From Spirochaetia bacterium (GTDB taxonomy: Bacteria > Spirochaetota > Spirochaetia > DSM-2461): DNA of 64,000 bases. Location: the NCBI GenBank assembly GCA_963666985.2, contig CAXXIA010000002.1:2016001-2080000 (forward strand). Reading direction: 5' to 3'. The position numbers are program-made. Positions 33,364 to 39,300 of this stretch are shown piece after piece (position 1 is the first letter of the stretch; each line of letters begins with the position of its first letter).

Positions 33364-36300
33364 AAAAGAGGGGCTGTCCCATAAGGGGTGGCCCCTCTTT
33401 TTATTTAGACTTACTGGAGTTGAAGGGGTGAGCCGCTGAGCAATAGCGAAGAAGAGGTGCCAGGATGGCACCGAAAGGCGAAACCAGCGGCCTGGAGGAA
33501 TCCGACACGATGTCGGATGATGGAAGGCGAGTCCAGTATCGCCCAACAAAAGAGGGGGCTGTCCCATAAGGGGCGGCTCCTCTTTTGTTCTTCGGAAGAA
33601 TCAGGCTTATTTTTTGTCGCCGTTCGGACAGCGAAGGAGGCTTTTCGCCAGCAGCCGAATATACTCCTTACGGGTTTCTTCGTTGTGTAAATCCACGGAG
33701 GCAAATTGATCATAGAGCCTCGGAGCGAAGATAAGCGGAAGAAGCGTGGCCGAGATTATCTGGATGATGGCGAGCTGAAGCGTTTTTTTATCGAGTTCCA
33801 CCCCCCTGCCGGTTAAATCTTCTTCAAGATTCTTTAAGAAAAGACTGAAGGCATCCATGGACGGTCCGCTGTAATCTCCGTTGAATACCCCTGAGAAGTG
33901 GGCACGGGTAATTCCGGGAAAGTTAACAACACCTTCCATTAAGTGATTCAGGATGACGGTAAGTCTGTCGATCGGTTCGGATTCGTCCGATTCCCGGAAA
34001 TCGGACCAGTCAAAGGCATTCTTGAGTGTAATGTCGATAACTTTCTTCACAAGGTTGTCTTTACTTCGGAAGTAGTAATTGATGGCCGCGCTGTTTACAC
34101 CCGCTCTCTCAGCGACTTTCCGGATGGTCATCGCTTCGAGTCCTTCTTCATTGATGCAGTCGATTGCCGCCAGGATTATTTTTTCTTCCGCGGAAGTTTC
34201 GGAATTCATGATTTCCCCATTTGATTGAAACGGCTGTTTGATTCGGATTTATCCTACATTTCTCCGGGAATCTTTTTCAAGCGGAGCGAATATTTCCTTT
34301 TCTTGAATGCCGCACATCCTTTCGGAACGTTCCCAGAGTCTGCACGCCGCGTCCCGATTATAGGAAACACGGCCGGATCGGATCGGTTTTCCTTCCAGCC
34401 AGTATGTTCCGTTTCCAAGAGTCTTAATCGGTGCGGTAATCAAATGAACGATGGTTTTGGCAGCATGATCCGAACCGACACCATGCTTTCGCCGCTTCGA
34501 CCAGAACCAGGATTCGAATCCGAGAGTGTTTTTTTGGCCGAGCCCTGTGTTTACCAAACCCGGATCGGCGGCGAAGGCGCGAACGGAACCGTGTTTCCCC
34601 AAACGGCGGGCCAGTTCGTAGGTAAAAATTACATTGGCGAGCTTGGATTGGCGATAAGCCTTGAGAAGGTGGTATCCCTTTCTTAAGTGGAGATCGTCCC
34701 AGTGGATTCGACCGGAGCGGTGCGATCCGGAGCTTACCGTTACGATCCGTGCTTCGGGGGCGGATTGAAGGAGCGGCAGAAGAAGCCGTGTCAGCAGGAA
34801 GGGTGCCAGATGATTCACGGCGAATTGGAGTTCGTAGCCCTCCGCGGTTGTTGTGTACCAGCTTGCGACCGTTGCGGCGTTGTTGACCAATCCCGCAAGA
34901 CCCTCGCATCCTCGGGAGGCCGTGAGATTTTCTATTGAAGCGGCCAATTCCCGAATATTCCTCTGCACCGAGAGATCCGCCGTAAGATATTCCACGGCGG
35001 AATTCGGGGATTCGGTTTGAATCAATGTTTTCGCGATTCGGCATTTCTCTTCCGACCGCCCGACTCCGACGACAAAGAAATTCGATGCGGCCAGGTTTCT
35101 CGCCGCCGCCAGTCCGATTCCGGAAGTCGCGCCCGTTATAACGACGGCTTTTTTCTCCGATTTCATTCTTTCCTCCTCACAAGGTTTTTTTTGTTCGAAG
35201 TAACTTTATAATTAAAACGTACGATTAGTCCATATGATTAAAACACGTGTTTGACGTCTCGGGTAATAAGGCTTATCGTGAATCGATTATAAGGGGACCG
35301 GGAGGATTGAGGGATGGAGAGTCGGGTTATGATTACGGGAGGCGCGGGTGCTCTGGGACGCGCGTTCGCCGCGGAATGCGCGGAACGGGGCTGGGATTTA
35401 ATTCTGACGGATATCGACGGGAACGCTTTGGCCGATACGGCCGCCGGATTATCCCGCGCATACGGAATCCGCGTGGATGTTTTTCCCTGCGATCTTATGA
35501 AGGAAGAGTCCAGGAATACTCTTTATTCCGATCTCGCGGATTCGGCATTGAAAATTCGGATGCTGATTAATGTGGCGGGTCTGGATTATGAAGGCGGGGT
35601 TTTGGAAAGGACACGGGAAGAGCTTCGAAAGATCGTTCGTCTGAATGTCGAGGCGACTTTGGAAACAACTCGCGCCGTATTGGAACTGAACGATTCGGAG
35701 CGGTCCTTTCGGCTCATTACCGTCTCGAGTCTTTCGGCCTATTACCCCATGCCGCTTAAAGCGACATACGCGGCGTCCAAGGCGTTTCTGCTGCAGTTTT
35801 CATTGGCCGTTCGAGAAGAACTTCGGAGTTCCGGGGGTTCGGCAACGGCGCTTTGTCCTTCGGGACTTCCTACACGGGAAGAAGCAATCGATGCCATCGA
35901 CGCTCAGGGCTTTATGGGACGGATAACGGCGATGAATATCGGAAAAGTGGCGGCTCTGACAATCGACGGAGCGCTTAAGGGACGGGCCGTTGTAATACCC
36001 GGTGCCGTTAATCGGGTTCTTCGGTTTCTCGGTTCGATCGTACCTCTTCCGATTCAAACCAGACTCCTTGCGGCCCGATGGGAAAAAGCGCGCGGCAGAT
36101 TCCGGCCGGAACCCGCCATTGGTGAATGAATAAATCTTTAACCGAAACCCCCTGTCGACGGATTGAGAAAATCGGGCCTGCGATGTAATACATATGAAGA
36201 GTGTTTTATCGCTACAGGAGGCCCCAATTTGTCAAATATCCCGATTTTTGAAAAATGCCGGAATTTTGAAGCAGCACAGCAGGCTCGGGAAGGCGGGTAT

Positions 36301-39300
36301 TATCCGTACTTTCGCCCCATAGAAAGAGCTGAAGGAACAAAAGTCATTATCGAAGGCCGTGAGCTGCTGATGTTCGGTTCGAACAACTACCTCGGTCTGG
36401 CTCAGGATGAACGGGTTCAGGAAGCCGCCGTTAAAGCGATTCACGATTACGGAACCAGCTGTTCCGGTTCAAGGTTCATGAACGGGACTCTAGATCTTCA
36501 TGAGAAGCTGGAGAATAAACTGGCGGAATTTACCGGTCAGGAAGCCGCCCTTTGTCATACCACCGGATATCAAACCAATCTCGGTGCCATCAGTGCGCTG
36601 GTCGGACGGAAGGATCACGTGATATCGGACAAATTTAACCATGCTTCCATCATGGACGGTATCTTTCTGGCCCGCGGTTTTTCGGGCGGGGTGAATCTTC
36701 ATCGCTACAAGCATAACGATATGGACGACCTCGAATCGGTATTGAAAAAGATACCTGCGGACGAGGGAAAAATTGTGGTGACCGACGGCGTGTTCTCCAT
36801 GGAAGGAGACATCGTAAAGCTGCCGGAGCTGAAGCTGCTTTGCGAGAAGTACAATGCCGCGGTTTATTTGGATGAAGCTCATGCCGTCGGCGTTGTAGGG
36901 GCCACGGGAAGGGGAACTTCGGAACATTTCGGTTCTCCGGATTTGGTGGATTTGGTGATGTGCACCTTCAGCAAGTCTTTCGGTTCCATCGGAGGATTTG
37001 TCGCCGGACCGGCGAAGGTTATCGATTATGTCAAACATTTTTCCCGGCCGCTGATATTCAGTGCGTCCATGCCTCCGGCCAATGTGGCCAGCGTTCTCAA
37101 AACTCTGGAAATTATCATGGAAGAACCTCAAAGGGTGCGCCGGCTGCAGGAAATCGCCGATTATATGCTCAAAGGATTTGCCTCACGGGGTTTTGATATC
37201 GGCCGCGCGGAAACGCCGATTATTCCCATTATTACCGGTTCTCAGGAGAAAACCATCGCTTACTGGACGGCTCTCTTTAATCGGGGGATTTACGTTAATC
37301 CGGTTCTGCCTCCGGCGGTTCCCCCGAACCGCTGTTTGATTCGCACCAGCTATATGGCGATTCATCAGCAGGCCGATTTGGATTATTTCCTTGATGCGGC
37401 CACCGAAGAAGCGGACAAACTTGATATTCCCCGAGCGGCGGCCTGATGACGAAGAGACCTTCTTTTCGATTGGCGATTCTGACAGGCGGTTCCAGCGGCA
37501 TCGGACTGGCCGTTGCCGAACGTCTTGTCGGTGAAGGCACCTCGGTGGTTCTGATGGCAAGACGCCCGGAGCTTCTCATGCAGGCCGCCGAAAGATTGGA
37601 GTTTAAAAAACGGGACAAAGCTGAAATCCACACCGTTTCTCTGGACGTTTCGGATGCTTCCGCGGTGCGCCAGGGGGTCACCCAAATTCTTCAAAACATC
37701 GGAACGCCCGATTTGGTTTATTGCGGGGCGGGAATGACTCATACCAACCATTTCGCCGAGATTACGCGGGAACAGTTTCAGGCGATTCTGACAACGAATG
37801 TCGGAGGTATTTGGAACGTGCTGTCGTCGGTTCTTCCGAGTATGAGGGAGAGGGGAGAGGGGACCGTCGTGACGGTTTCTTCCGTATCGGGCTTGGTGGG
37901 AACCTACGGGTATTCCGCCTATGCCGCTTCGAAGTTCGGCGTTATGGGTTTGTCTCAGGTTTTGAGAAACGAGCTCAAACCCGACGGGATTCGGGTGAAG
38001 GTGCTCTGTCCGCCGGATACCAACACCCCGCAGCTGGAGGAAGAGCGGCTCACGATGCCGGAAGAAACCCGGAAAATCAACGGGATGGCCGGATGCAAGG
38101 AGCCCGAGGAGATCGCCGAGGCGCTGATGAAAGGCTTACGAAAGCGACGGTTCGTTATCCTTCCGGGATTTATGAGCAAGGTTACCTGGTATCTCTACCG
38201 GTGGTTTCCCGGATTTGTTCATCTGATTATCGATTCGGATGTCCGGAGGGCGCGAAAGGCGAAGTGAGTGCTTTGGCTCCCAGGGAGCCGAAGCATCAGG
38301 AAGTGGTGCATTATATTGCGCTGAACAGGTGCGATACCGCGATAATATCGCCGACTATTGCTTGAATTCCAGCCGAACCAGCCTGACCATGCTGAAAAGA
38401 TCGGAGAAGCGCATTCTGAATTTCGTATCGGAAGTCCATTCTTTATTTATGGCGATTCGTCTGTAGAACGGATAATCGGCGGCCACATGGATTTTCGGGG
38501 AGACTTTGGAAAAGAACTTGCGGGTGTTCCTTAAGGCGAAATACATTTCGGCGCCTTTATTTCCGGTTTTCTTGACGTAGTTGTTTGAAATCTTCAGTCC
38601 GACTTTCCCCACGGTATCGAAGACCATGGAAGAGTCGGGAAAGCTTTCGGCGATTTTTTTGATGAATTCGCCGACAACCTCTTCTTCAAAGTAGTAGAGA
38701 ACTCCCCCGACAATGAAGAGACATCCCTTTTGAGGGGTATAATCGATTCGGTTAATCCAGGAGTAATCGAAGCAGGACTGGGCTATGGATTGGCTCCGTT
38801 CCCGAGGGGCAATGTATTGATTTCTCAGCTCGATGATTTCCGGCAAATCCAGGTCGAACCATCGCACGGATCCGTTATCGATTCTTGAAAATGTGGTATC
38901 CAGACCTGAGCCTATGCTGATGATGACCGCTTCGGGATGCACGGAAAGATATTCCTTGATTTCCCTATCGAAATTGGCGGCCCTGACTGCGCTGGCCAGG
39001 CAATAGTACTCCTTGGATGAATCAATATGGCTGAAATCGTAGCCGACTTCATCGGCAATTCGGGTGGATTCGGCATCGTTGAGCAGGGACGGCCACTTCT
39101 TCGTTGCATAGGCCCGTCCCCACAAGGGTACAAAGAGTGTTTCCTGGATATTGCCGGCAGGTAATGTCATTTAATTTTGAGAGTTCCTTCGGCCGCCGGT
39201 CTAATATCCGTCCGAGGCGGCTCTGTTCATATCCTTTTTGTAGAGTTCGTTATAAACAAATCCCCGGTTTCTAAGAGTGTCTTTCACCGGCTGAGTGAAG

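Follow-up and report, generated by a model that had tools for sequence, protein, structure and literature searches.

Does a spirochaete make sphingolipids? The question is raised by two overlapping genes, g03115 and g03116, in the window, the 64,000-nt stretch of a Spirochaetia genome analysed here. An earlier note had read them as a serine palmitoyltransferase (SPT) and a 3-ketodihydrosphingosine reductase (KDSR). Its observation as a whole was confirmed, and its interpretation is partly supported: the core of SPT plus KDSR-type reductase held up and was strengthened. In the literature searched, two survey tables aside, spirochaetes do not figure as sphingolipid producers, and we found there no paper on spirochaete sphingolipid synthesis. 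The note's statement that no spirochaete sphingolipid report was found needs a qualification: Treponema denticola appears in one review's list of bacteria that have phosphoryl ceramides. Surprise is also tempered by a survey which, in the part available, reports Spt-like genes from 38 phyla.

Layout of the locus

The following features were located, all on the + strand.

35314..36129, +: second short-chain reductase (SDR) of the locus, probably outside the module (homologue distribution and neighbours)
36216..36221, +: Shine-Dalgarno-like AGGAGG, 7 nt 5′ of the likely spt TTG start (sequence)
36229..37446, +: g03115, SPT-like alpha-oxoamine synthase, 405 aa, PLP lysine in CTFSKS (PDB, NCBIfam, trees, motifs)
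37444..37448, +: TGATG, in which the spt stop and the reductase start overlap and so couple the two genes (sequence)
37446..38267, +: g03116, KDSR/Tsc10-family short-chain reductase, 273 aa, adjoining spt (Pfam adh_short; TGGSSGIG, Y159xxxK163, PPDTNTP lid)

Both open frames of the pair are present in the window sequence, and the overlap described earlier is borne out, with the spt TGA (37444–37446) and the reductase ATG having one base in common. TTG 36229 is most likely the start of g03115; orthologue alignments begin at query positions 1–6 counted from it. In a strain from another study, 33521–38276 lies on a single contig and differs from the window by 73 substitutions; all indels listed for it lie before 33600. 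A promoter and terminator scan of the locus stayed at chance level (4 vs 4.2; 12 vs 8.2 ± 2.6).

The stretch annotated earlier opens with a third gene that the note's text left out, the SDR at 35314–36129. Its homologues occur in 2 of 37 other genomes of the order, both head-to-head with a similar SDR; neither 3.8-kb locus contains spt, and the spt loci examined gave no match to it above 90 bits. On these results it was dropped as a third pathway gene. It is probably the partner of the divergent SDR at 34249–35166 and not part of the module.

Relatives of the synthase and the reductase

The best PDB matches of g03115 are Sphingobacterium multivorum SPT structures (8guh, E 1.7e-121; 3a2b, E 2.1e-121; 409 bits), followed at a distance by the next entry (250 bits), the first Kbl/BioF-type protein (247), CFAT (218) and HemA-type enzymes (at most 178), which reproduces the earlier scores. 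Against NCBIfam it scored 512 bits with NF047600 (SerpalmtaseCFB), 379 with BioF and 378 with a BioF/Kbl-related model, again in agreement with the note (513 vs 379), and fell below every cut-off, including those of Kbl, BioF and SerpalmtaseCFB (640 bits). Sister-clade proteins with an adjoining bcerS also miss the SerpalmtaseCFB cut-off (520–590 bits), so the shortfall limits the label and not the function.

In S. multivorum SPT numbering, counted by hand from the alignment, g03115 is identical at all the residues that surround PLP-serine in that enzyme (N52, G80, S81, H138, S185, H213, T241, S243, K244, S273 and A274; PMC10196870). Near the amino-acid pocket, and counting against the SPT reading, four positions differ (A79→S, S53→N, M271→I, F114→Y). 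It retains N117, an SPT-specific residue (PMC13692747), and its motifs are of SPT type (GSRFMNG and FSAS, not SVRFICG or GHVSG). Two features set it apart from CFAT: FSAS replaces FAKx, so that the dimer-interface lysine K280 characteristic of CFAT is missing, and the two fall in separate clades. In trees, g03115 lies within a Spirochaetia clade (100/99) whose sister group is Calditrichota-type SPTs (100/99), apart from Kbl, BioF and CFAT; the 22-row SPT-like group that contains it has support of only 86/94, and its only member above the family cut-off is an uncharacterised MAG protein. These comparisons support g03115 as a bacterial SPT, nearer to characterised SPTs than to Kbl, BioF, CFAT or HemA. 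Calling it "Bacteroidota-type", as had been done, is loose: its nearest solved relative is S. multivorum SPT, but its sister clade consists of Calditrichota-type proteins with spt-bcerS loci. The S. multivorum enzyme (3A2B, 8GUH series) is likewise a soluble single chain with the same PLP and serine-site residues; g03115 differs in scoring below the family cut-off, in belonging to a Spirochaetia clade rather than within Bacteroidota, and in its coupling with a gene of the KDSR family. A recent origin by transfer from Bacteroidota was weighed and set aside on GC3 values of 0.56 and 0.64 against genome quartiles of 0.55–0.63 and on the multi-family composition of the Spirochaetia clade, no rooted donor test being made.

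The reductase carries a Pfam adh_short domain, and G14–G20, S146, Y159 and K163, the classical SDR motifs, are invariant across 40 homologues. A lid profile built from 24 family sequences retrieved yeast Tsc10 from the PDB (8jat, E 2.8e-9; next entry 0.081), while the lid of g03116 itself, EERLTMP, departs at two positions from the family consensus ENxTKP. With a whole-length family profile, Tsc10 ranked fifth (second among single-domain entries) at 154.7 bits, against 162 for a FabG-like entry. Tsc10 was not among the 60 matches listed in a single-sequence PDB search with g03116, nor among the matches listed in fold searches with its predicted model (pLDDT 95), which returned hundreds of near-tied SDRs headed by 17-beta-HSD13 and did not narrow down the substrate. 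For g03116, generic SDR clusters came back from the ESM Atlas, one of them auto-named 3-dehydrosphinganine reductase, which we treat as a lead only. The motifs and the lid profile support membership of g03116 in the KDSR/Tsc10 family, the family lid being closer to that of Tsc10 than to those of other SDRs. With the eukaryotic enzymes (yeast Tsc10, 8JAT; human KDSR/FVT1) it has in common the classical SDR type, TGGSSGIG, YxxxK and a Tsc10-like family lid; it differs in its EERLTMP, in having no transmembrane stretch (hydropathy maximum 1.26) and in that its reductase activity is a prediction. Because the protein opens with its nucleotide-binding motif at residue 13, it looks cytoplasmic. A bacterial SDR able to reduce free 3-ketosphinganine is known, BT_0972 of Bacteroides thetaiotaomicron, a species in which no full KDSR homologue was found (candidates 16–30% identical; PMC9278070).

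Distribution of spt-kdsr and outer-membrane genes

The earlier count of SPT in 4 of 38 genomes of the order, all of the source genus, was reproduced at a threshold of at least 63% identity, but the trait is not confined to the genus: close orthologues of g03115 occur in 47 of 181 Spirochaetia genomes, and SPT in 66 of 400 genomes of the phylum Spirochaetota. As stated before, the reductase adjoins SPT in two of the three other genus members, whole in G028 and partial in G027 (about 40 codons before the contig end), and not in G030. Of 29 loci examined across the class, 24 have a KDSR-like gene next to spt and in the same orientation, and this neighbourhood is conserved across many families. 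Complete bcerS-kdsr-spt runs lie behind glycosyltransferases in G210 and G285; at locus L267, SPT is flanked by an epimerase and bcerS, with no flanking KDSR-like gene. The 80 genome loci closest to g03115 include a gene like that of bacterial ceramide synthase (bCerS) in 39 cases and a CerR-like epimerase in 43. Of the 334 phylum genomes without SPT of the g03115 type, 44 have a KDSR-like gene, and such genes also adjoin other alpha-oxoamine synthases.

A separate CFAT operon had been reported for this genome, and structure matches and operon content confirm it. The synthase gene, at C2:2833240 and about 780 kb from the window locus, matches solved CFATs best (347 bits vs 209 for SPT) and carries the CFAT lysine; the operon holds sulfate-activation and PALP genes, with an SDR of its own directly 5′ of the former. 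This second synthase, and not g03115, which is without the CFAT pocket, corresponds to the sulfonolipid pathway (cysteate synthase, CFAT, 3-ketocapnine reductase). CFAT is present in each of the order's four SPT genomes.

LpxC, LpxB, Kbl, BioB and BioD were not found in the source genome (93% complete, which is the scope of all gene absences there), and the organism seems, from its gene content, to be without lipopolysaccharide. LpxC is missing from 20 of 22 genomes with SPT and KDSR, a pattern that follows a few families; it is present in 36 of the 66 SPT genomes of the phylum, and SPT as a general lipid A replacement across the phylum was rejected on that count. To our knowledge, lipid A replacement in free-living Spirochaetia is little studied.

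Proposed pathway and competing readings

We propose that g03115 would form 3-ketosphinganine by a decarboxylating condensation of L-serine and a long-chain acyl thioester (acyl-CoA or acyl-ACP), and that g03116, as a soluble SDR of the yeast/animal KDSR family, would convert this product to sphinganine by NAD(P)H-dependent reduction of its 3-keto group. We put the probability that the pair makes a sphingoid long-chain base in this way at about 0.78. The Spt-bCerS-CerR pathway (Caulobacter crescentus; E. coli BL21 spt, yghO, ECD_02852) has the same SPT first step; the source genome also encodes a YghO-like GNAT protein, and sister-clade loci show spt-bcerS-epimerase. Unlike that system, the window operon has no acpR or aasR, and no CerR-like gene was detected in the 93% complete genome with two queries (best 64 bits; the other E 7e-14 over 213 aa); neither query was Caulobacter CerR itself, and the best spt-linked epimerases score 131–141 bits. 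CerR works in the periplasm, on a substrate that is already acylated (PMC11087976). That a KDSR-family gene occupies the slot held by the epimerase-like CerR in the sister clade suggests cytoplasmic reduction before N-acylation, the eukaryotic order. Sphinganine would then probably be N-acylated to dihydroceramide, a step that we consider likely but less certain than base formation. With the CFAT operon counted in, the cell would make bases from both serine and cysteate, which could plausibly serve an outer membrane that lacks lipid A.

The bCerS homologue g03044 is present as claimed, 83 kb from the first SDR (C2:1967217–1968440) and 31% identical over 379 aa to E. coli BL21 YghO; no NCBIfam model matched bCerS-like proteins. 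Its link to the module is weak, and we give about even odds that it performs N-acylation. In a competing account, quite possible though short of an even chance, the pair makes the sphingoid base and g03044 serves capnine or another amino-lipid, with the base left free or acylated by a novel acyltransferase. Three spt-kdsr genomes (G066, G128 and G257, 99–100% complete) gave no bCerS match with two queries. bCerS-like genes occur in 16 of 38 genomes of the order, only three others of which have SPT, and, as the note itself had cautioned, they occur without SPT elsewhere; five of the six closest relatives of g03044 are in genomes with no SPT-like gene found. Many CFAT genomes, too, gave no bCerS match. 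On the other side, no bCerS-like gene other than g03044 was found in the source genome, one member of its clade (G124) lies 1.2 kb from SPT, and bCerS-like genes are present in 60 of 66 SPT genomes against 68 of 334 other phylum genomes, counts in which related genomes are not independent.

It is improbable, in our estimate, that g03116 acts on 3-ketoceramide once acylation has taken place, as in Caulobacter, or that its main substrate is the 3-ketocapnine of the CFAT pathway. Yeast Tsc10p reduces a 3-ketocapnine analogue and many SDRs are promiscuous, according to the available part of PMC11211663; the order's SPT genomes all have CFAT, and in G032 and G033 (77% and 88% complete) a KDSR-like gene and CFAT were found but SPT was not. 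However, the CFAT operon has an SDR of its own, and the coupling of KDSR-like genes to spt in 24 of 29 loci extends to G066, where neither CFAT nor bCerS was found.

Slightly less probable again is a synthase that prefers alanine or glycine and yields 1-deoxy bases. The first of the four differing pocket positions, A79, which is Ser in g03115, matches human C133. S. multivorum SPT takes Ala and Gly at low efficiency, and 1-deoxyceramides abound in anoxic marine water, as stated in the available parts of PMC10196870 and PMC11334938, respectively. Against this, the residues of the water-mediated contact to the serine hydroxyl (N52, S243 and G80) are unchanged, and A79→S recurs in the Calditrichota sister clade and in one Bacteroidia protein.

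It is very unlikely that g03115 is a housekeeping Kbl or BioF that has an SDR beside it by chance, and that no sphingolipids are made: BioF-type models do score 378–379 bits and many homologues are auto-named 8-amino-7-oxononanoate synthase, but the genuine Kbl genes of relatives group in a clade of their own (one above the Kbl cut-off), the motifs are SPT-type and the neighbourhood is conserved; with BioB and BioD not found and only two alpha-oxoamine synthases in the genome, no second gene points to biotin or threonine use.

If the proposed sphingoid-base pathway holds, the capacity to make such bases would be present in about one in four of the Spirochaetia genomes sampled, and the range of possible ceramide and sulfonolipid sources in anoxic waters and sludge would widen. 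The order of steps in bacterial ceramide synthesis, which is disputed (PMC11087976), would gain a clean test case, an operon-linked eukaryotic-family reductase with no CerR found. We offer, tentatively and as doubtful on the gene evidence to hand, a broader picture: a large share of free-living Spirochaetia may use sphingolipids of their own making, here with sulfonolipids, to construct an outer membrane free of LPS, by an old, class-wide spt-kdsr pair with reduction before acylation. The reductase would be a genuine bacterial representative of the KDSR family of eukaryotes, so that bacterial and eukaryotic ceramide synthesis would share two enzymes, not one, and spt-kdsr lineages without bCerS would either harbour a hidden ceramide synthase of a third kind or rely on free bases. 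Sediminispirochaeta bajacaliforniensis, a named cultured species, encodes a synthase 68% identical to g03115 (WP_020613271.1).

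A serine palmitoyltransferase-like synthase coupled to a reductase

Three genes lie in line on the forward strand:

35314-36129, + strand, first short-chain reductase (SDR), open frame
36229-37446, + strand, g03115, alpha-oxoamine synthase of 405 aa; most likely start TTG 36229, with AGGAGG 7 nt before it
37446-38267, + strand, g03116, second SDR, open frame

The g03115 stop and the g03116 ATG share one base. Because a strain from a second study carries 33521-38276 on one contig, with 73 differences (identity about 98.5%), the locus is not an assembly artefact. The first SDR was rejected as a pathway gene: its homologues pair with a divergent SDR, without the serine palmitoyltransferase (SPT) gene spt, and it is probably a passenger. 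Divergent from it (33607-35166, - strand) are a TetR-family regulator and an SDR, and the two SDRs are again head-to-head in two relatives (G005, G006). Frames 2-7 kb before the locus comprise two that we take, from the look of their sequence, to be transposase-like (28050-29630 and 30284-31437) and a PriCT_1 primase-like one (31456-32511). At 39169-39190, just past a methyltransferase-like gene, the strain from the second study is longer by 2,220 letters.

The scores on which the earlier note had called g03115 an SPT were reproduced, with 409 bits to S. multivorum SPT versus 250 for the next entry, and 512 on NCBIfam SerpalmtaseCFB versus 379 on BioF. Against a SerpalmtaseCFB cut-off of 640, 512 bits leaves g03115 by score outside that strict CFB SPT family. 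Along the 8guh alignment, by which residues were numbered, all 11 residues placed around PLP-serine in the available text of PMC10196870 (N52, G80, S81, H138, S185, H213, T241, S243, K244, S273 and A274) are identical in g03115. Four others differ from S. multivorum SPT (A79 to S, S53 to N, F114 to Y, M271 to I); main-chain contacts are given for F114 and M271 in the same text. Of the residues that PMC13692747, in its accessible part, names as features of SPT (N117) and of cysteate fatty acyltransferase, CFAT (K280), g03115 keeps the asparagine and lacks the lysine. The only other alpha-oxoamine synthase in the genome has the CFAT lysine, and its best structure matches are CFAT. BioB and BioD were not found in the genome, which removes the reason for reading g03115 as BioF.

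In a tree of 32 proteins chosen from 144 (LG+G4, no mixture model), g03115 falls within a Spirochaetia clade covering families f1, f3, f12 and f13 (support 100/99), whose sister is three Calditrichota-type proteins (100/99). Kbl, BioF, CFAT and one further clade are placed apart, and the wider SPT-like group is supported at only 86/94; a 70-row tree has the same shape. We also scanned the 80 top-ranking loci of the species collection, mostly titled Ignavibacteria, Calditrichota, Zixibacteria or unclassified MAGs, for neighbours of at least 80 bits in flanks of up to 6 kb, often shorter. A bacterial ceramide synthase (bCerS)-like gene occurs in 39 of them and an epimerase-like gene in 43, resembling E. 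coli BL21 YghO and ECD_02852, whose homology to the acyltransferase and reductase of Caulobacter is given in the available text of PMC9386255. These neighbours place g03115 in a group whose genes sit within ceramide-type clusters.

The reductase g03116 is a classical SDR without a transmembrane stretch. Its single sequence gives generic FabG-like matches, a 40-sequence whole-length profile ranks Tsc10 (the eukaryotic 3-ketodihydrosphingosine reductase, KDSR) fifth, and fold searches with its model end in ties among SDRs. In SDRs the region after the catalytic lysine shapes the substrate site. A profile of this lid, built from 24 of 39 homologous stretches, found Tsc10 at E 2.8e-9 and no other match below 0.08; as judged from sequence, the lid region, not whole-length comparison, is decisive for assignment to the KDSR/Tsc10 family. 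The lid of g03116 itself reads EERLTMP where the family has ENxTKP. Databases already annotate bacterial SDRs of this kind, several homologues having been named 3-dehydrosphinganine reductase automatically. Bacterial reductases with shown activity, in the accessible parts of PMC9278070 and PMC11211663, are CerR, BT_0972 and ketocapnine reductases, with only 16-30% likeness to Tsc10.

Distribution of the spt-kdsr pair

The count of SPT in 4 of 38 order genomes, given by the earlier note, stands but is too narrow a picture, the distribution being class-wide: at E 1e-140 or better, 47 of 181 class genomes have a match (30 of 99 genera, 20 families). The reductase adjoins SPT in G028 and also in G027, where the contig ends within it, as had been stated. 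Among the 29 best of the 46 other class matches, 24 have a KDSR-like gene next to spt in the same orientation, upstream in 23 and downstream in one; in five of these 24 a weak, flank-cut bCerS match lies beyond the reductase. The remaining five include one sequence ending 242 bases upstream, one locus with bcerS and one with bcerS plus an epimerase. In metagenomes, twelve SPT homologues can each be paired with a reductase homologue from a contig of exactly the same length. The named, cultured Sediminispirochaeta bajacaliforniensis has a 68% homologue of g03115 (WP_020613271.1), and in a locus encoding a synthase 98% identical to the latter, the reductase lies directly upstream. The spt-kdsr module is real and conserved.

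In a phylum sample of 400 genomes (SPT-like threshold E 1e-110, only 4-6 candidates scored per genome), 66 have an SPT-like gene. A bCerS-like gene occurs in 60 of these 66 versus 68 of the 334 others, and a KDSR-like gene in 22 versus 44, kin not being independent. In G210 and G285, bcerS-kdsr-spt form one run behind glycosyltransferases (L225:891-10928 and L224:5220-15573); the one-strand order GT4, LPG-synthase-TM, GT4, PMT_2-like, bcerS, kdsr, spt, MacB-like permease is a candidate complete glycosphingolipid operon. In G032 (L128:3232-4209) a KDSR-like gene has the same place and three neighbours as in G028 (L103), but spt and one more gene are lacking, which indicates that spt was locally lost or gained.

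Proposed pathway and lipid context

Most likely (probability about 0.78), g03115 would condense serine with a long-chain acyl thioester to 3-ketosphinganine, which g03116 would reduce to sphinganine in the cytoplasm; sphinganine would then be N-acylated. Judged by sequence, the module would carry out steps equivalent to the first two of eukaryotic sphingolipid synthesis and is not a standard case of the Spt-bCerS-CerR pathway. In Caulobacter the reductase works in the periplasm, as the last step (PMC11087976, available text). A KDSR-family enzyme in CerR's place points, by analogy, to the eukaryotic order, reduction before acylation. Since yeast Tsc10p also reduces ketocapnine (PMC11211663, accessible part), family membership does not fix the substrate or step order of g03116.

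Acylation is the soft spot of the pathway reading. The distant g03044 is the sole bCerS-like gene in the genome, and we put the chances that it is the N-acylase at about even. It belongs to a distinct clade (support 100); of the six others in that clade, five are from genomes in which no SPT-like gene was found. No bCerS match was obtained in three 99-100% complete genomes with spt-kdsr (G066, G128, G257), and no CerR-like gene was found in the window's genome. Around g03044 (L001:2666-14456), lipid-related neighbours have YhhN-family, acyltransferase-3 and acyl-CoA thioesterase domains, with frames that, from the look of their sequence, are presumably PlsY-like and DAK2/DegV-like. In genus g7, a bCerS-like gene is present in 8 of 9 genomes, yet their synthase is only a 39-40% match; such cells might acylate bases that they scavenge, or produce a different amino-lipid.

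The predicted capacity for both sphingolipids and sulfonolipids holds at gene level, since each of the order's four SPT genomes also has CFAT. Of the 38 order genomes, 25 carry a CFAT orthologue, many of them without a bCerS match; in this family, sulfonolipids seem to be the older trait. In the window's genome, CFAT closes a run (L002:8141-14521; C2:2828140-2834520) that also holds an SDR, sulfate-activation genes and a PALP-family gene.

Neither LpxC nor LpxB was found in the genome (93% complete; controls detected), and LpxC is absent from every class-level family listed. In the phylum sample, 36 of 66 SPT genomes keep LpxC; it is only among those with both SPT and KDSR that most lack it (20 of 22). 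By analogy with Sphingomonas, where sphingolipids serve an LPS-free outer membrane (PMC13721041, available text), we infer that lipids made by g03115 and g03116 may do so here.

Earlier reports and other synthase cassettes

Literature listings gave no study of how spirochaetes synthesise sphingolipids, and two survey tables may list Spirochaetota. The earlier statement that there is no spirochaete sphingolipid report calls for one caveat: a review (PMC11278827) counts Treponema denticola among the bacteria that have phosphoryl ceramides. In its accessible parts, the cited primary paper (PMC11052126) gives PE-ceramides only in three other species, and it finds deoxy-ceramides across all microbes tested; neither paper shows synthesis. 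Spt-like genes have been reported from 38 phyla by Ding et al., whose main text, in the paper as in the preprint, nowhere contains 'spiroch'; the supplementary table may list Spirochaetota.

A different alpha-oxoamine synthase clade (36% to g03115, motif GAPLLSG) occurs in cassettes of relatives:

L133:4130-16065, in G036
L134:5175-15259, in G017
L135:5940-15982, in G034
L129:2423-13043, in G033

These hold HMG-CoA-synthase-like, enoyl-CoA-hydratase-like, FabA-like and SDR genes, and others that we take by sequence look to be ACP-like, KS-like and FabD-like. They end in a bCerS-like gene, with a KDSR-like gene nearby instead in G033, and by coordinates G019, G020 and G037 show the same bCerS-synthase spacing. 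The cassette looks like a putative route to a beta-branched amino-lipid. In G374 (L231:5841-11882) and G280 (L232:6747-11288), bcerS, a distant synthase (37-39%), ACP and acyl-AMP ligase stand in a row, closed in G374 by a KDSR-like gene on the opposite strand. G010 (L105:10001-12409) encodes an 802-aa fusion of a FemAB-like/GNAT domain with an SPT-like domain scoring 444 bits on SerpalmtaseCFB, and the same fusion may be encoded by open frames of 808 aa in G172 and G213.
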